A stretch of DNA of 36,194 bases from the IMG/VR virus record IMGVR_UViG_3300037882_001468, positions 1 through 36,194 of that record; one strand, given 5' to 3'. Positions 3,001 to 30,318 of the stretch are shown in pieces; within the stretch, counting starts at the first letter, position 1; the number at the start of each line of letters is the position of its first letter. A program made the position numbers and the translations under genes. The DNA is from a virus. Lineage: Duplodnaviria; Caudoviricetes. The notes beneath the pieces were generated by a model that was not told where the DNA came from, did not search any database, and saw nothing but the letters and a program-made list of their open reading frames with translations.

Positions 3001-4385
3001 TCATAAACTTGTTTTTCAACCGCCGCAATGCCGCTTTGGTCGCGGCTGCTATCGTTAAACATTTTTGTGAATTGGTCTAAGGCCGCGCGGCTTTCTTCGT
3101 CTAAATCTTGGGCGCTTGCAATATCAACATCATTGTCAAAATCTTTCATAAGCTGCATGAATTTTGCGGCCGAGGCATCGTCTTTTGCAATGGGGGCAAG
3201 CTCTTTTTGAATAAATTCGTCCATGCCGCCTTTGGCAGATTGAAAGTTTTCAGCAGCATACTTGCCCATTTTATCAGCTTGGGCTTCATTAAAACCTTGT
3301 TTGGTGGCTTCATCTTTTACAAATGCGCCAACGGTTACGCTTGTTGTGCCGCCAATAATACCACCCAAAACGCCTTGGTAGAGAATATCTTCGGCTGTTT
3401 GCTGCATACTTTTATTGCGAATACCTGAAACTTGGGTAATTAGCTCTTCACCAGTTGCTTGCCCACTCTCTTGCATAAGTTCTGTAATGCCACCTGAAGC
3501 AAAACGGCTTACAGCACTGTTGGCTCTTAACCCTGACATAAAAGCTGGCAAACCCACAGCTTCAAGACCACCATCAACCATACCACCAAAAGTTGATATG
3601 TCTGAAGATGTAGCAGCGTCTTTAGTTTTTCGCCCCTCTTGATATAAATTTGATTTTTGTAACCCGCCAAAAAAAACCGCAGACATAGTAGTGCTTTTTG
3701 TCAAATAGGCTAAGCCAAGACTAGTTAATAGAGAGCCTGCGCCAGAGCTAAGGTCATAAATTTTTTGAGCCCCCCATTCGTTATCGCTTGGCCGCTCAGG
3801 CAATGCCTTTTTAACCCACTCTTGATTGCGTTCGCTAAGTTTTTTTGAACCTTCTAGCAAATCTTGATAATTTTCCATGCCAACAAATTTATCAATGTAA
3901 TGCTGTATGACTTTTACAGGGCGTTGGTTTATGGGATTTGTTACATATTCGCCCTCGCCCATGCGCTGTAAAGCAGTTTCTGCAATTTCAGTTTCAAGGC
4001 CTAAAAACGCTTGCGGTATTTGCCCAACAAGAAAGTTACCTACACCGCCAGCAGCAGCTTTTAGGCGGCCTACTGGCTTCATAGCCCAAAATTCTTTTAC
4101 TTCATCAACATCACGCTCAATAACAAAGCGAGTTTCATCGGCATTAAGCGTTTGCGGCACACTCAGCACACGCTTGCTTTTAGCGTCATAAACCGTGTTA
4201 TTTGGCGCATTGATGGTTTTAAGCTGCAATGGCTGCAAGATTTGTTGCGCGCGGCCTGTGTTGTCGCCTGCCGTTAATTCTGAAACACTCACTTGTGGGA
4301 TATTGCCATTGCTAGCGGCTGGCTTGGCGGCCCCCGCTTGGGTCATCTTTACTTCGCTTGGGGTTAAACTGCGCAAATCAACCAT
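1..4385 (-). CDS. Giant internal virion/DNA-ejection (polyvalent) protein, 5' part; joins 35090..36095 across the junction, ~1796 aa total
   Basis: ATG at 4385 overlaps the TAA of the upstream gene (TAATG) and reads MVDLRSLTPSEVKMTQ. Segments I translated by hand are open and in frame with the 35090..36169 ORF (36169 maps to position 74, same frame). Contains NFWRWFGDSKVVDDQGRPMVVYHGT, STLLHESAH and EERFARGFE..FKQWLNDIY..VFDRML, typical of epsilon15/BPP-1-type large ejection proteins. Confidence 0.9.
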   Translation of the reverse strand, partial: MVDLRSLTPSEVKMTQAGAAKPAASNGNIPQVSVSELTAGDNTGRAQQILQPLQLKTINAPNNTVYDAKSKRVLSVPQTLNADETRFVIERDVDEVKEFWAMKPVGRLKAAAGGVGNFLVGQIPQAFLGLETEIAETALQRMGEGEYVTNPINQRPVKVIQHYIDKFVGMENYQDLLEGSKKLSERNQEWVKKALPERPSDNEWGAQKIYDLSSGAGSLLTSLGLAYLTKSTTMSAVFFGGLQKSNLYQEGRKTKDAATSSDISTFGGMVDGGLEAVGLPAFMSGLRANSAVSRFASGGITELMQESGQATGEELITQVSGIRNKSMQQTAEDILYQGVLGGIIGGTTSVTVGAFVKDEATKQGFNEAQADKMGKYAAENFQSAKGGMDEFIQKELAPIAKDDASAAKFMQLMKDFDNDVDIASAQDLDEESRAALDQFTKMFNDSSRDQSGIAAVEKQVYEQAIAAGENEDVAMQNSKLWGAVSDASSRALGITPKEWVDSLGLQIKDGSVVSPPTPRVVETGDADYLVAKYEPMVSDNAKRFVAEAVSVKNSLAMQVDRNNPAQVKKALKLDKAPETLLQAIYRHGGLSDGLTQQERDTLAYGGKTKSEMKQGELRQAFDGRRGMLSRYVRAGGVSVDDMIRLLEKDGYFGQGQDVNANDLVDLIEQEANGTKIYPAQIEQSVAAEIDYQNQILDHYARVGINDGMTIPEIAEFMAADALQQPADIIPDEIDDGLFFQAEGMAYDAPTIEVDGVVRPTTNDKGQPIAATQEGLQNFWRWFGDSKVVDDQGRPMVVYHGTKADFETFNRSSGGEFGAGIYFSEYETTAKQFGGYQSGNSKVKVVSGYLSILNPLITNDRNVPRGMGIKKIIKDGYDGVIGTQPNGDKQYVAFEPTQIKSVNNKGTFSPADARILNQKDKAGKARGSVEFKDGQTIITLFAGKNASTLLHESAHIFLRNMEKVAKNTNRPRVKQDFEKIKKWLGNDGNGFTRPQEERFARGFEQRLRSGVSPRPELNTVFDKFKQWLNDIYKSAQNLNVTISPEVSDVFDRMLGSDFVKSEKLFQAQQERDIEADYERVANYVAPNTLKTDALNVLSSAGESAADIFVPVSTRLGKIHKSLKIAVRKFVFETGITTQEDHKIVKPFIQAVSDKMTPEDYKIFDLALKNRDNVKVDYLVNKYGIEKEYQGVRELLDGFYNETEALGLGFGYIEDYFPRQVKADKKLDYLNLLKKKDNWGAIQLALKEHDPKNLLTEPEKADFINKYLRGFSSSRITLARPSYSKARGVDYVTPEFNEYYEDSMQTLISYVAGVRGIIQSKKFFGAESEDATKAMKKAKKYNKLIVKVSDMSAEDVKLMRIKAKRDYIKAMVAEKVTRPDFNYDEDAALQRLSQFSKRNADDIKTKYVQTLNGKLKETQAVVENLSLNLEDSIGAYVSGLIEQGVILPEQERVIKSILKGVVE
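1240..1620 (-). other. Zincin-like HExxH metallopeptidase-like domain within the giant ejection protein
   Basis: RGSVEF..IITLF..NASTLLHESAH (HESAH at 1524-1538), followed by a downstream EE motif (QEERFARGF). Confidence 0.7.
1640..2150 (-). other. ADP-ribosyltransferase-like (ART-PolyVal type) domain within the giant ejection protein
   Basis: Manual translation gives VVYHGT (YHGT at 1983-1994), FGAGIYFS, YLSILNPL, GYDGVI and YVAFEPTQIKS-NNKGTF, the motif order of ART domains in polyvalent proteins. Confidence 0.8.
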
Positions 4386-19123: not shown

Positions 19124-20335
19124 TTAAAATTCAGACAAATTCGCTACCACTAGCTCACGCATAAATGGCCCATTGCCATCAATTTGCAAATATGGGTTGT
19201 TCTCATCGCCCAAATCCCTCATAGGAGTTGCGCGACTAACAAGCATTTTAAGCCATCTTCCACCCTCTTGCTCTCGTGGACTTGATAGGTTATTAAGGCT
19301 AATTAAAATATGACAAGCTTTATTTAATCCATTGCCAGCAAAGACATCGCCCTGTTTATTGACCTGCGCTAACAATAAAACCCAAATCTTATTTTTTTTT
19401 GCAAAGTCAGCTAGGCCTTGAGCCACCTCTCGCAAGTGATATTCTTCAGTTTCCTTTGGGTTGCGGCCTTTTATGAGTTGCCAGTAATCAATAATAACCC
19501 CCTCAACTTTGTGTTTATGCACGGCTAAGGTCATTTTCTGCTGCAATTCTGTCCAAGTTATACCTGCTGCGTCTGAATAAATCACGTTATTTTTAATCAA
19601 ATCATAATTAGGCTCTTTAAGTTTTTTGTAATAAGTTTGGCTGTATCGGCCATGTTGGCGTATTTCAATATCGGCGGCGCCCATTTCCATTGCAACATAA
19701 AGATGTTTGTGCCCCATAAGGTTAAGATTGCCTGAAACTGTGCCAGCAAACATAGTTTTGCCTGATTTTTCTGGGCCAGCAAAGCAGTATAGTTTACCAC
19801 TTTCCATGCCACCGTCCATAACACTATCAAGGGTTTTAAAGCCTGTTGGCGTAACTTTGCCGCTAGTTTTGTTTAAAAAATACTGTTGAATAACCTCTTG
19901 TTGGCTTAAAAAATCATCAGCAGGTAGATAATCCATACTTTGTTTGGCAATAAAATCATATAATACGGTTGGCTCAGCCCCTTGAACGCTAGCCATAATT
20001 AAAAGCTCTTTTGCAATAGCTTGGGCTTTTCTCACATGATAACCATCAATCAAAGCTTTTTGGTAAAAACTAAAATTTGCCTTCAAGGGGTTAAAAACAA
20101 GGCAATCGGCAAGCGTTTCGCTAACCTCTTTAGTAGTTTGTCCAGTTTCTGCCGCAATCTGAGAAAAGACCCACGGTGCATTAATTTTACCATGAGAAAG
20201 CTTACTTTCAAAGGTTTTTTCAAAAAACAACCCATAAAAATCAAAGTGGTATTTTTTTAATTCTGTTTGATAAAACAGGTCATCATGCGTTAAAAGTATT
20301 GATAATACGCTATATTCAAGTTCTTGAGTGTCCAT
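19124..20335 (-). CDS. DnaB-like replicative helicase
   Basis: Walker A GPEKSGKT, AMEM, Walker B IIDYWQL and LLAQVN; follows the initiator gene. Confidence 0.9.
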   Translation of the reverse strand: MDTQELEYSVLSILLTHDDLFYQTELKKYHFDFYGLFFEKTFESKLSHGKINAPWVFSQIAAETGQTTKEVSETLADCLVFNPLKANFSFYQKALIDGYHVRKAQAIAKELLIMASVQGAEPTVLYDFIAKQSMDYLPADDFLSQQEVIQQYFLNKTSGKVTPTGFKTLDSVMDGGMESGKLYCFAGPEKSGKTMFAGTVSGNLNLMGHKHLYVAMEMGAADIEIRQHGRYSQTYYKKLKEPNYDLIKNNVIYSDAAGITWTELQQKMTLAVHKHKVEGVIIDYWQLIKGRNPKETEEYHLREVAQGLADFAKKNKIWVLLLAQVNKQGDVFAGNGLNKACHILISLNNLSSPREQEGGRWLKMLVSRATPMRDLGDENNPYLQIDGNGPFMRELVVANLSEF

Positions 20336-20943
20336 TATAGCCCTGCCAATGCATTGTTAGATTTAGTTTTAGGCGCTGTTGTCTTCTCGTTTTTAGCCCA
20401 TATTCTAAAAACTGCGTTATAATCCTTATAGGTTTTGCCCTTAGCTTTGCAGTAATCAAAAATCTTATCTCGCAGGACCAGCCTATCAATGTTAAAATTA
20501 TTAACATCAAGCCACGGCTGCAAATAATCCAAACTATCAAGTTTAAATTCATTTAGGCTTTTTTGCGGCCTATCCTCTACTCTACTCTTCTCTACTCTTC
20601 TCTTCTCTATTCTAGCACCGGTGCTAGCATCTGCTAGCAACTTGCTAGCATTAGAGCTAGCATCGTCTATTTTTAGCAAAAATCCAACATCAACTAGAGG
20701 CTGAAAGTCAGGTTTTACGCTAATGTGTGCCATCTTTTGAACGTAATCGGGGTTATCAGGTATGCAGCCATCGTGACGGCTTGCTAGCATCATGCATACA
20801 ATTGCTAGCAACTTGCTAGCATCGTCTAACATTACCCATGTTGAAGATGATATAAGCTCATAATGCAGTTTTATCCAAGGTGGCGACCTATGTTTATAAT
20901 GCTGGTATCTTTCCCATTTATCAATTTTATACGCATATTCCAT
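20335..20943 (-). CDS. Replication initiator (lambda O-like replisome organiser)
   Basis: WERYQHYK..PPWIKLH N-terminus, low-complexity EKRRVEKSRVE linker, C-terminal YKDYNAVFRIW; carries iterons; coupled to the helicase. Confidence 0.8.
   Translation of the reverse strand: MEYAYKIDKWERYQHYKHRSPPWIKLHYELISSSTWVMLDDASKLLAIVCMMLASRHDGCIPDNPDYVQKMAHISVKPDFQPLVDVGFLLKIDDASSNASKLLADASTGARIEKRRVEKSRVEDRPQKSLNEFKLDSLDYLQPWLDVNNFNIDRLVLRDKIFDYCKAKGKTYKDYNAVFRIWAKNEKTTAPKTKSNNALAGL
20575..20828. repeat. Iteron array / putative replication origin inside the initiator gene
   Basis: Palindrome TGCTAGCA at 20622, 20632, 20643, 20782, 20803 and 20814 (plus GCTAGCA at 20656). 20-bp direct repeat at 20632-20651 and 20803-20822. 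Adjacent pyrimidine/purine-asymmetric tract at 20575-20614. Confidence 0.8.
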
Positions 20944-21122
20944 TACTCACCTGCCTTACTAACAGCAGCCACAAGGCTGTAGCCCAAATCAAGGGCTTCC
21001 TTTTCTGTCATTTCAAGCCTAAATAATGGCAGGTCTTTTGTTTCAATTGTAATTAAATTAGGTTTAGCCGCAATGCTAAAGCCTGTAAATTGGGCTTCCC
21101 GCCCTTGGGTTTTGTGTATCAT
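20943..21122 (-). CDS. Small hypothetical protein, first gene of the replication operon (59 aa, not in track)
   Basis: MIHKTQGREAQF...VSKAGE*, GGAGG RBS, stop overlaps the initiator ATG (TAATG). Confidence 0.8.
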   Translation of the reverse strand: MIHKTQGREAQFTGFSIAAKPNLITIETKDLPLFRLEMTEKEALDLGYSLVAAVSKAGE

Positions 21123-21129
21123 GGTTTAG

Positions 21130-21156
21130 CCTCCAAGCTATTATCCTCCAAGCTAT
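21130..21156 (-). repeat. Tandem duplicated RBS, ATAGCTTGGAGG x2
   Basis: Plus-strand CCTCCAAGCTAT at 21130-21141 and 21145-21156. Confidence 0.9.
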
Positions 21157-21222
21157 AAAATTGGCGGCTTTGCCGCTCGGAGGGTTAGCAAATACAGACC
21201 GCTAAGTCTTACCGCCGCAGCT
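21157..21222 (-). ncRNA. Structured leader RNA of the leftward operon with anti-RBS element
   Basis: GGCGG/CCGCC outer stem, TTAGCGG/TTGCTAA hairpin, and CCTCCGAGC (21183-21175) complementary to GCTTGGAGG. The G-U pairs form only on the minus strand. Confidence 0.65.
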
Positions 21223-21252
21223 AATAAAGCACAAAACCCCCGCGCCTGTCAA
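21223..21252 (-). promoter_or_regulatory. Leftward promoter (replication operon)
   Basis: Perfect TTGACA at 21252-21247 and an AT-rich, non-consensus -10 (TTTATT) 18 bp downstream. Confidence 0.55.
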
Positions 21253-21253
21253 C

Positions 21254-21273
21254 TGGAATAATTGTTTATTCCA
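21254..21273. promoter_or_regulatory. Inverted-repeat operator between back-to-back -35 boxes
   Basis: TGGAATAA-TTGT-TTATTCCA, perfect 8-bp arms. Confidence 0.6.
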
Positions 21274-21287
21274 CCAATAAAAGGGTA

Positions 21288-21316
21288 TTGACATGACATT
21301 AAAAAGGAAACAAGCT
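21288..21316 (+). promoter_or_regulatory. Rightward promoter for a putative small RNA
   Basis: TTGACA at 21288-21293 with a weak -10 (CAAGCT/GCTAGT); followed by non-coding structured sequence. Confidence 0.5.
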
Positions 21317-21319
21317 AGT

Positions 21320-21430
21320 TTTAGGCTAAATTATCCTTGGTGGGCGCGCCAGCCGCCCAAGCACACTAAATCGGTATGCAGTATTTAGCCTAGTTTCATA
21401 GCCTGTAAAAATACCGATAAGCTGGCACTT
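21320..21430 (+). ncRNA. Putative two-conformation small antisense RNA
   Basis: No ORF. Helices: 21322-31/21383-92 (10 bp), 21341-46/21354-59, 21370-77/21411-18 (8 bp) and 21348-53/21421-26 (6 bp). Confidence 0.6.
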
Positions 21431-21519
21431 TACCCGATAATATTGTAAAATAAATCAATTTTCTTTTTAATAAAACCAATAGCTTAAATAGTTTTTTCTG
21501 CTAAGTCTAAAAATAACGC

Positions 21520-21548
21520 TTGACAGTCTTTTATAATACCTTTATAAT
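21520..21548 (+). promoter_or_regulatory. Consensus sigma70 early promoter
   Basis: TTGACA-N17-TATAAT, perfect consensus. Confidence 0.92.
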
Positions 21549-21592
21549 ACCTATATAAGAAGAAAAAAACCACTAAACAAAAGGATTACAAG

Positions 21593-21718
21593 ATGCGCAC
21601 AATTGAAACACAATTTACAACCGAAGAAGAATGTGAAGCCTACGCAGCCGCCGAGGGTATGGTTATTATCATGCTTAGCCAAGCAAGTGGCGGCACTTTT
21701 GACATGACAGTAATTTAA
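21593..21718 (+). CDS. Small acidic early protein (41 aa, not in track)
   Basis: MRTIETQFTTEEECEAYAAAEGMVIIMLSQASGGTFDMTVI*, AAGGA RBS, first ORF after the promoter. Confidence 0.75.
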   Translation: MRTIETQFTTEEECEAYAAAEGMVIIMLSQASGGTFDMTVI

Positions 21719-21729
21719 GGGGGTTGGCT

Positions 21730-21945
21730 ATGCACGGCAAATTCAAAGACATTGAGCAGCAAATTTTAACCTACCACGCCGACTGCAAAAAATTAGCGCG
21801 CGGCCGCCAAGGTTTAAGTTTTTCAGACCAAGTGCAGCGCCAGCGCAACCACATAGAAAGCCTAATCAGTGGCCTAAACGAGCCGACATCGCAGAAACTT
21901 TTAACCAACGCACTAAACAAGGGGTTACAGCTATGGACACGATAA
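21730..21945 (+). CDS. Hypothetical early protein
   Basis: ATG at 21730 after an AAGGGGG RBS. Confidence 0.7.
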   Translation: MHGKFKDIEQQILTYHADCKKLARGRQGLSFSDQVQRQRNHIESLISGLNEPTSQKLLTNALNKGLQLWTR

Positions 21946-22043
21946 TTTTACAATTACAAGCCTATTACCTGATGCAGGTAGGTGAAAGCGCCGACAAAGT
22001 TTTACAACAATTAGCAGATGCAAGAAAGGAAACCCAGTTATGA
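21933..22043 (+). CDS. Small hypothetical early protein (36 aa, not in track)
   Basis: MDTIILQLQAYYLMQVGESADKVLQQLADARKETQL*, AAGGGG RBS, ATGA overlap with the next gene. Confidence 0.65.
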   Translation: MDTIILQLQAYYLMQVGESADKVLQQLADARKETQL

Positions 22044-22300
22044 ATATTTTTCAATTAGCAACAGATTTAGCCGTATTACAGCACCGCGACATCATGGGCC
22101 AACCAAGTGAGCCACAGCACGGCAGCCCATGCGACAGAGGCAGCGCCGATGCTTATTATAACCGTGCACCGCGGCCGCACTATTACAAGCAAATTGATGG
22201 CCAGCGTGTGCGGGTTACTGATTTAACACCAGAAGAATTAAGCGAATATGCTTATGGATATGATAATGAGCACGATAGAAAGGATAGAGCCGATGATTAA
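22040..22300 (+). CDS. Conserved phage hypothetical protein (HGxPxDRGSADxYY family)
   Basis: HGSPCDRGSADAYYNRAPRPHYY..LTPEEL.EY..GY motif; AAGGA RBS. Confidence 0.8.
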   Translation: MNIFQLATDLAVLQHRDIMGQPSEPQHGSPCDRGSADAYYNRAPRPHYYKQIDGQRVRVTDLTPEELSEYAYGYDNEHDRKDRADD

Positions 22301-22949: not shown

Positions 22950-22978
22950 TTGACAATCCTTTTTAATACCAATATAAT
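22950..22978 (+). promoter_or_regulatory. Consensus sigma70 promoter for the recombination operon
   Basis: TTGACA-N17-TATAAT, perfect consensus. Confidence 0.92.
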
Positions 22979-25315: not shown

Positions 25316-25651
25316 ATGTCAAATCCATTTGAAAAAGCTGAGCAGATTATTAACAAAGAAGTTGAACGCCAACAGCGAGAACCAGAACTTTTTAACCGTA
25401 TGCATGGCACAGAAAAGGCACCCGATGCAGGCGCGCGCCTAAAGCTTTTGATTGAACGCATTGAACGCTTAGAAGAGGAAAAAGCAGCCATTGCCGATGA
25501 TATTAAGGAGGTTTATGGCGAAGGCAAAAGCGCAGGGTTTGACCCCAAAATTATGCGACAAATTGTGCGCTTGCGCAAGCTGGCCACCGACCAACGCCGC
25601 GAACAAGAAGAGCTGGTTGAACTTTATAAATCTGCATTAGGCATGGTGTAA
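25316..25651 (+). CDS. gapR: GapR/DUF2312 (UPF0335) nucleoid-associated protein
   Basis: LKLLIERIERLEEEKAAIADDIKEVYGEGKSAGFDPKIMRQIVRLRK..RREQEELVELYKSALGM. Confidence 0.92.
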   Translation: MSNPFEKAEQIINKEVERQQREPELFNRMHGTEKAPDAGARLKLLIERIERLEEEKAAIADDIKEVYGEGKSAGFDPKIMRQIVRLRKLATDQRREQEELVELYKSALGMV

Positions 25652-30090: not shown

Positions 30091-30318
30091 ATGAAACCCA
30101 CACCAGCACAATTAAAAATCACCAAAGCCCAATCAGATGTTTTTGAAATTCTGAAAAAGCGAGAGCGCAAAGGCCTTACATCAACTGCCAGCGACATATC
30201 GGCAGAATGGGGCAATCGCTCAAAGTGCTATGTTTATCGCGTGGTGCAAGTGCTAGTTGATGCGCGCCTTGTTGAGCGCTATTCGCGCCGCTATTACAAA
30301 GTCAATTTACAAACTTGA
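30091..30318 (+). CDS. LexA-N-like winged-helix DNA-binding protein (no peptidase domain)
   Basis: TKAQSDVFEIL..STASDISAEWGNRSKCYVYRVVQVLVDARLVER. Confidence 0.7.
   Translation: MKPTPAQLKITKAQSDVFEILKKRERKGLTSTASDISAEWGNRSKCYVYRVVQVLVDARLVERYSRRYYKVNLQT

Follow-up and report, generated by a model that had tools for sequence, protein, structure and literature searches.

The first gene of the leftward replication operon of this phage is probably under the control of an RNA-level translational switch. An anti-Shine-Dalgarno (anti-SD) arm in the mRNA leader is predicted to rest either on the real ribosome binding site (RBS) or on a duplicate of it that acts as a decoy, and a small RNA transcribed divergently would tip the balance towards repression. 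We give this whole reading, cis decoy and divergent trigger RNA together, a probability of about 0.4. Its best-supported part is the cis anti-SD/decoy design, which was absent from the earlier note and which we hold with fair confidence; the trans-acting small RNA is put forward tentatively. The switch is a prediction from a single sequence. The earlier note had proposed an RNA-only switch analogous to C4 and CI. An RNA-level switch is retained here by way of the cis design, while the small RNA itself stays a candidate in its existence, its strand and its ends.

Genome Setting of the Control Region

The window, by which we mean the whole stretch of DNA analysed, is a complete virus record of 36,194 bp with direct terminal repeats. 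The studied region is the 470-nt gap that separates a leftward operon from a rightward operon of early/recombination genes. The leftward operon comprises a 59-aa orphan ORF, a replication protein, a DnaB-like helicase, a resolvase, an exonuclease, a terminase and podovirus-like structural genes. The 59-aa ORF (20943..21122, minus strand) is its first gene, and its stop overlaps the start of the 202-aa replication protein (20335..20943, minus strand; phrog_26426), after which the DnaB-like helicase follows at 19124-20335.

The 59-aa ORF and the 71-aa ORF that flank the gap are both orphans, and Atlas matches for the ORFs scored at most 0.85. The 59-aa ORF had no PHROG or Pfam match, the sequence search gave two repeat-driven matches only, and the fold searches returned neither a clear match nor a significant match to an RNA-binding fold. 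Its structure model (pLDDT 72.5) showed four strands and one helix, which is neither a helix-turn-helix nor a ribbon-helix-helix arrangement, and on this prediction the product would be a soluble domain rich in strands, not a membrane toxin. Among the 55 ORFs compared with PHROGs and the 30 compared with Pfam, no recognisable integrase or cI-type repressor was present, so the view of this phage as one without either was borne out. No antirepressor family was detected among the ORFs scanned in this way, and a weak helix-turn-helix match at 30091-30318 was the only one among them.

Avoidance of GANTC is tied to CcrM, which is found in alphaproteobacteria. The whole genome contained a single GANTC site, against ~141 by a flat estimate, and a gene for a GapR homolog was located at 25316-25651; these two features together suggest an alphaproteobacterial host. 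Among other features of the genome, the 86-aa ORF at 22040-22300 had no PHROG or Pfam match but is a member of a large viral family, with 467 stretches confirmed. Origin repeats can lie inside a replication gene, as in lambda O. In the present genome, seven of the nine (T/A)GCTAGC(A/T) palindromes were clustered inside the replication gene at 20613-20822, where the strongest folding window of the genome was also found (z -7.8), and these palindromes are likely to be origin repeats.

A Duplicated Ribosome Binding Site with an Anti-SD Arm

The start region of the leftward operon contains a 12-nt exact tandem repeat with a period of 15 (21130-41/21145-56), one of two such repeats in the genome. 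Copy 2 (21130..21138, minus strand) is the real SD, GCUUGGAGG, located 7 nt before the AUG at 21122, and copy 1 (21145..21153, minus strand) is the predicted decoy partner of an anti-SD arm. This arm, CCUCCGAGC (21175..21183, minus strand), can form 9 bp, including one G-U, with either copy, and the minus strand of the genome offers GCUUGGAGG no other such partner. The duplication of the RBS is thereby accounted for, because the cis anti-SD arm would toggle between the two copies. Across the window and the fetched loci, a 9-bp anti-SD arm was found at 24 of 2347 SD-bearing starts; an arm with a second partner in between was found at one of the 2347, namely this locus, from which the criterion itself was taken.

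The balance between the two copies was sensitive to the length of the leader. In the free ensemble, the ratio of pairing of the anti-SD arm with copy 1 and copy 2 was 0.48:0.52 for a short leader starting at 21215 and 0.89:0.11 for a long leader. When copy 1 was blocked, the probability of the arm pairing with copy 2 rose from 0.52 to 1.0 in the short leader and from 0.11 to 0.42 in the long one. With 21140-53 blocked, opening the RBS cost 8.4 instead of 4.4 kcal/mol in the leader from 21215, and about 10 instead of 5.9 kcal/mol in longer leaders. By this prediction, a blocked copy 1 leaves the real SD buried more deeply, by about 4 kcal/mol.

Two further elements surround this domain. A perfect 10-bp long-range helix, 21239-30/21116-07 (spanning 21107..21239, minus strand), encloses the RBS domain with P=1.0 and requires an mRNA start upstream of 21239. 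Only three close perfect inverted repeats of at least 10 bp exist in the genome, and two of them are located here, this helix and the stem P1 described below. A candidate five-codon mini-ORF (21119..21136, minus strand) has a TTG start 8 nt behind the GGAGG of copy 1, and its TGA overlaps the ATG at 21122.

The Candidate Small RNA and Its Complementary Blocks

The candidate small RNA (21323..21441, plus strand) carries three blocks, E1, E2 and E3, which had been reported as complements of the duplicated RBS and were all confirmed in the sequence. E1, ATTATCCT (21330-37, plus strand), matches 21140-47, and its target, assigned to the decoy copy, is AGGAUAAU (21147-21140, minus strand). E2, CCAAGC (21357-62, plus strand), matches 21133-38 and 21148-53 and is the only block matching both RBS copies. 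E3, TTTAGCCT (21384-91, plus strand), matches 21125-32, and its target AGGCUAAA (21132-21125, minus strand) lies between the SD and the AUG. E1 and E2 are contiguous in the target and colinear with copy 1; E3 is out of order and not colinear with them. A fifth block, CAAGCTA (21311-17, plus strand), is located upstream of both candidate RNA starts.

The longest match to the RBS region was 8 nt, and a match of 10 nt was found inside the ORF. Among 20000 shuffles, 105 contained two 8-mers, 124 contained a 14-nt split match and 17 contained both. With the genome's own words as reference, 9 of 650 non-overlapping 111-nt windows held at least 16 nt of 8-mer matches. Among 2214 gene starts, the window included, the 14-nt colinear chain was present at 99, which makes it a 4.5% event, and a 20-nt three-part chain that includes the CAAGCTA block was present at 11. 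The words of E2 and E3 are common in this genome, with 51 copies of GCTTGG and 13 of AGGCTAAA; AGGATAA, the core of E1, has 6. Overall, the blocks match the RBS better than chance would give, yet only modestly; against the genome words and the gene starts, which are the fairer references, the match is less striking than against shuffles. E1 was also considered as targeting the first gene of the rightward operon; this was not supported, the match being only 6 bp and outside the top 5 of 56 starts.

The RNA had been placed behind its own TTGACA. This hexamer was found on the plus strand at 21288-93, but at a spacing of 17 nt it is followed only by CAAGCT, a weak -10 element, and ATGACA-17-TAGTTT fits equally well. 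These overlapping weak promoter candidates (21288..21321, plus strand), identified by consensus match only, derive from a duplication of TGACA at 21288-98 that yields two promoter readings 5 nt apart, each matching 8/12, with starts at ~21323 and ~21328. No plus-strand terminator was found after the candidate RNA. The rightward early operon has a perfect sigma-70 consensus promoter at 21520..21548 (plus strand; first ATG 21593), and the promoters at 21520 and 22950 both matched the consensus at 12/12. The two (21520-21548 and 22950-22978) share the spacer motif TTTWTAATACC, which was discarded as a phage-specific signal, a looser motif being present in 18 unrelated loci.

On the leftward side, a TTGACA at 21247..21252 (minus strand) lacks a good -10 element (TTTATT at 18 nt), and a promoter candidate TTAAAA-17-TACAAT at 21442..21470 (minus strand; start ~21435) matched 9/12. 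Between the opposed TTGACA hexamers lies a single-copy 20-bp palindrome (21254..21273) that could be an operator or an RNA hairpin; with up to 3 mismatches it has one match in the genome, and 31 of 100 shuffles give one. The genome has three copies of the motif TTGA(C/A)ATGACA, and no more than 700 nt contain them all: 21288-21302 (plus strand), 21699-21713 (plus strand) and 21016-21006 (minus strand), which places them at the candidate promoter and in sense orientation inside the first ORF of each operon. Its chance mean is 0.57, and 2 of 100 shuffles reached 3. A leftward RNA across 21302-21288 and the rightward mRNA across 21699-21713 would show complementarity at 14 of 15 nt.

Alternative Folds and the Transcribed Strand

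The helices listed previously for the two folds of the candidate RNA were all present, with 21378-81/21403-06 including a G-U pair. Fold A is closed by stem P1 (21322-31/21383-92). The 5' arm of P1 repeats the RBS word, and the RNA start at ~21328 falls inside this arm. Fold B is a rod formed by 21330-35/21436-41, 21339-44/21429-34, 21348-53/21421-26 and 21370-77/21411-18. The accessibility of the blocks differed from the earlier description. Fold A does hide E2 and E3, which cost 6.1 and 10.4 kcal/mol to open, but E1 is mostly open (2.0 kcal/mol). Fold B had been said to leave all three blocks unpaired; no modelled state frees all three, E2 or E1 being buried depending on the 3' end. The mean unpaired probabilities of E1/E2/E3 were 0.93/0.22/0.51 for 21328-21430 and 0.27/0.66/0.51 for 21328-21445. 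E1 is buried in the longer RNA because of the further helix 21330-35/21436-41, and its opening cost in full-length fold B was 4.1 kcal/mol. What computation supports of the two-state description is a closed fold A against an open RNA (fold B, or an RNA without the 5' arm), with best seeds of -1.7 versus -5.1 kcal/mol; the simultaneous exposure of the three blocks does not.

Within this genome the folds do not stand out. In fixed 100-nt windows they were ordinary, with z no lower than -2.0 and none among the best 25 of 722 genome windows. With chosen bounds they were moderate: z was -2.15 for plus 21328-21442, and for 21308-21410, an interval picked by eye, it was -3.56 on the minus strand (0 of 300 shuffles) and -2.92 on the plus strand. 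The structured island 21336-81 has 63% GC, and its flanks have 22-30% GC.

Read leftward, the same DNA (21300..21435, minus strand) gives a hairpin (21431-08), a three-way cloverleaf (21406-21310) and a U-tract. Fold A and its extensions contain four G-U pairs on the minus strand that become A-C mismatches on the plus strand, whereas the G-U pairs of fold B favour the plus strand and are mismatches on the minus strand. Since the DNA is quasi-palindromic, each strand has its own preferred fold. Given its G-U wobbles and the U-tract on the opposite strand, fold A may be a leftward leader, and both plus and minus transcripts may exist. GGA motifs would also allow the minus strand a CsrA-type decoy role.

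Predicted Pairing with the Leftward mRNA

The predicted interaction with the mRNA depended on the 5' end of the plus-strand RNA. In an RNA starting at ~21323, P1 closes, and the best seed was only -1.7 kcal/mol, a value that 24 of 60 shuffles equalled. In an RNA starting at ~21328 or refolded to B, E3 paired with AGGCUAAA at -5.1 to -6.1 kcal/mol and E1 with the decoy at -3.6 kcal/mol. The accessibility-aware E3 seed of 21328-21430 (-5.1) was matched by one of 60 shuffles; the C4 RNA of P1, treated identically as a control, gave a seed of -6.6 kcal/mol. In the modelled complexes, the E1 and E3 seeds would both act toward repression.

The expectation that pairing would exceed shuffled controls was not borne out by the cofold and duplex energies, which were no better than those of the shuffles (at best 16/100 for plus-strand RNAs). 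The P1 C4 control failed the cofold comparison too and passed the duplex comparison at 1/100. As this control also gives 0.0, equilibrium cofolding cannot judge the pairing. Forced nested complexes, in which pseudoknotted states are omitted, were all unfavourable with the longer leader (+0.9 to +18.4) and near zero or positive elsewhere; the exception was E3 on the short leader, at -10.3 to -1.8. Seeds of the minus-strand RNA for the RBS were weak, the best being -1.7. The known C4 case, with its success in the duplex comparison and its completely accessible elements, is thus stronger than the candidate.

Search for Relatives

Homologous loci were sought with the replication protein family (three collections), the helicase, the terminase, a profile of the 86-aa ORF and a 323-aa protein, and the last of these yielded no homologous loci. 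Nothing significant resembling the leader or the RNA was found by blastn/nhmmer over 225 loci and 118 loci. A single-sequence covariance model had no match beyond the window in 287 loci, apart from one fragment at E=4.1, in a scan that left out L206-L226 and L233-L266, and it had none in five whole records. A DNA search of five MAGs was empty, and blastn against phages and plasmids gave no relevant match.

Operon heads of the replication protein family were collected from 221 loci and the window where enough upstream DNA was available, with duplicates and short ones dropped. Among the resulting 140, the duplicated SD occurred only in the window (0 of the 139 others). A scan for the duplicated-SD pattern gave 14 loci; the look-alikes in L234, L239 and L243 were rejected as antisense between genes of an unrelated phage. 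The structural relatives of this phage, with a capsid ~75% identical, have short control regions and no such RNA, and two of them (G004 and G005) had no match to the replication protein profile.

Several observations were made in related phages. Short ORFs that appear ribbon-helix-helix-like by eye were seen in L001 (2822-2977), where the window has the 59-aa orphan, and in L230 (2616-2861) and L347 (1396-1590 and 15939-16199). In L005, a distant locus like L012 below, the leader of the replication operon holds a short stem-closed RNA with a U-tract on the same strand (3683-3771). Its 5' part is predicted to pair with the RBS located 30-40 nt further downstream, to which GAACCC and CCUUAGC are complementary in colinear order, and CTAAGG is duplicated. 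This leader is IsrK/C4-like, had no Rfam match and gave a fold z of only -0.7 to -1.0. In L012 (3860-3990, on a contig shared with L002), a 21-bp stem with an inner hairpin and a U-tract directly precedes the replication gene (z -5.5; no Rfam match). L005 and L012 show that RNA-structured leaders occur in such modules; they do not show homology.

Proposed Mechanism and Alternative Explanations

In the proposed mechanism, the anti-SD arm would rest on the decoy copy in the on state and on the real copy in the off state. A small RNA transcribed rightward from 21323-21328 would turn the gene off by binding both the decoy and the stretch next to the real site. An RNA without stem P1, either started at ~21328 or refolded to B, would expose E3 for AGGCUAAA, and E1 would be open for the decoy while the 5' end of the RNA is free; with P1 closed, the RNA would be nearly inert. 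The start site or the length of the RNA may select its state. Silencing of the 59-aa ORF would shut down the replication protein and DnaB via translational coupling or polarity, and the switch could time or limit replication in place of a protein repressor. In an elaborated form, which we consider improbable, the locus would be an all-RNA flip-flop: the choice of start (21323 closed, 21328 open) or refolding on lengthening would set the state, the small RNA would take the decoy and the SD-AUG spacer together, and the same DNA read leftward would be an attenuator.

The element may instead be read leftward, as a leader starting at ~21435 whose hairpin, cloverleaf and U-tract form an attenuator or a C4-like RNA cut from the leader, with read-through to the anti-SD/decoy domain; the plus-strand complements would then be sense copies or arms of the quasi-palindrome. 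The promoter candidate at 21470-42 and the long-range helix that needs an upstream start make this a serious rival, although a doubtful one. Just downstream of this 9/12 promoter, the minus strand has the four G-U pairs in place of A-C mismatches, the lower z over 21308-21410 (-3.56 vs -2.92) and a U-rich run directly after the outer stem. Refolding from B to A is predicted as the minus RNA grows, the order of two hairpins and then a 3' junction is as in P1 C4, and structured same-strand leaders precede the replication genes in L005 and L012. However, a multibranch stem is not a typical terminator, the wobbles of fold B favour the plus strand, the RBS seeds of the minus RNA do not exceed -1.7, and the single-stranded E1, an exact complement on the plus strand, is left unexplained. 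It is unlikely that the cis toggle alone is real, with the upstream matches due to chance or local duplication debris. In that case a ribosome translating the copy-1 mini-ORF, the position at which the mRNA starts, or an RNA-binding protein such as, perhaps, the 59-aa product would flip the toggle. The cis design is indeed the rarest feature of the locus, the stop of the mini-ORF overlaps the ATG, leader length shifts the copy 1:copy 2 ratio from 0.48:0.52 to 0.89:0.11, the 14-nt chain is a 4.5% event, and CAAGCTA at 21311-17 lies upstream of both starts, as duplication debris would. Neither the GC-rich island at 21336-81 (63% within flanks of 22-30%) nor the 20-nt three-part chain (11/2214) is explained in this way, and the 59-aa protein lacks a significant match to an RNA-binding fold.

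Two explanations dispense with RNA control. The repeats could be DNA sites through which Rep or another protein autoregulates transcription, as the SD is covered by a TAGC-N6-GCTA that is similar to the likely origin repeats inside the replication gene. All four TAGC-N6-GCTA sites of the genome are in 20613-21140, and the palindrome lies between two TTGACA hexamers; but copy 1 breaks the TAGC-N6-GCTA palindrome, the sites are not at a good promoter, and the strand-specific helices that depend on G-U pairs, together with the anti-SD arm, point to RNA, which makes this explanation very unlikely. It is scarcely probable that everything beyond a neutral 15-nt tandem duplication arose by chance in a GC-patchy intergenic region: the window z-scores are unremarkable, no conservation was found and the criteria were all chosen after the locus had been seen, yet the rarest repeats and the anti-SD arm are co-located at the first gene of the operon.

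If the combined reading, cis decoy plus divergent trigger RNA, is true, phage replication genes can be placed under an RNA-only switch built unlike C4, CI or IsrK, in which a decoy SD amplifies a weak 8-nt seed into an RBS occlusion of about 4 kcal/mol. The whole module occupies about 330 nt, and the design would constitute a compact riboregulator. This phage would also enlarge the group of phages that have no protein repressor in the divergent control region.

Comparison with Known Systems

In the literature consulted, mostly without subscription papers, no toggle was described in which a divergent small RNA of a phage gates a decoy SD. Rfam gave no gathering matches in the window, with only a chance match to TUG1_2; in particular, the suggested match to the C4 or CI models was absent, with no C4 match at E<=10 in 20900-21800 and no isrK or CI-type match. 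The predicted fold A (21322-92) nevertheless resembles C4 (RF01695) on either strand in its three stems, P1-P3, and its length of ~70-77 nt, although its P1 has 10 bp versus 17 in P1 C4. As in C4, elements of 7-8 nt match duplicated targets, one of them at the RBS of a small first gene (annotation of P1; excerpts of PMC5320573). C4 lies on the strand of its targets, between the target sets, whereas the best complements of the candidate are on the opposite strand and its duplicate target is tandem, with a cis anti-SD. The elements of C4 are colinear and cost almost nothing to open (0.06 and 0.17 kcal/mol); those of the candidate are partly buried, with E1 and E2 colinear to copy 1, E2 paired (6.1 kcal/mol) and E3 out of order. 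C4 controls icd-ant; among the ORFs scanned here, no antirepressor family was detected. In fold B, a GGU-started stem at 21339 that closes at 21434 bears a resemblance, and only that, to the RNase P 5' GGW of C4.

The tisB/IstR-1 pair has a divergent layout. A small RNA encoded beside the structured 5' leader of a small ORF is a trait that the candidate shares with type I antitoxins, and the layout alone is not new, because a TimR-type divergent small RNA acting on a structured leader is known. TimR is divergently encoded and blocks translation of a small ORF with a structured 5' leader (excerpts of PMC8167048), and IstR-1 acts on tisB away from the SD (excerpts of PMC6690012). The pairing of IstR-1 is extensive and perfect, while that of the candidate is split into blocks of 6-8 nt without long continuous complementarity. 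Moreover, the 59-aa ORF heads a replication operon and is modelled as four strands and a helix, in contrast to a hydrophobic membrane toxin. Among phage antisense RNAs, sar overlaps its target. P22 sar and lambda OOP are small RNAs that repress an early regulator post-transcriptionally, and OOP is listed as cis antisense (excerpts of PMC12197685). Both are fully complementary to the targets that they overlap, whereas the candidate is 170-320 nt from its target.

A CI-type layout, in which the RNA comes from the leader with targets on both sides, would fit only the minus-strand reading, and no upstream target set was identified. The likeness to P4 CI (seqA/seqC) lies in RNA control over an operon with replication genes, and the likeness to Gifsy-1 IsrK in a small RNA that shifts an mRNA leader between two states and in translational coupling (excerpts of PMC4825925 for both). 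Both of these RNAs come from the transcript of their own targets, while the candidate is a divergent unit; IsrK activates through about 30 nt of pairing, and the candidate is predicted to repress through 8-nt seeds. The predicted switch thus works like C4, CI and IsrK but, having no Rfam match and the wrong strand relation, is not a member of their group.
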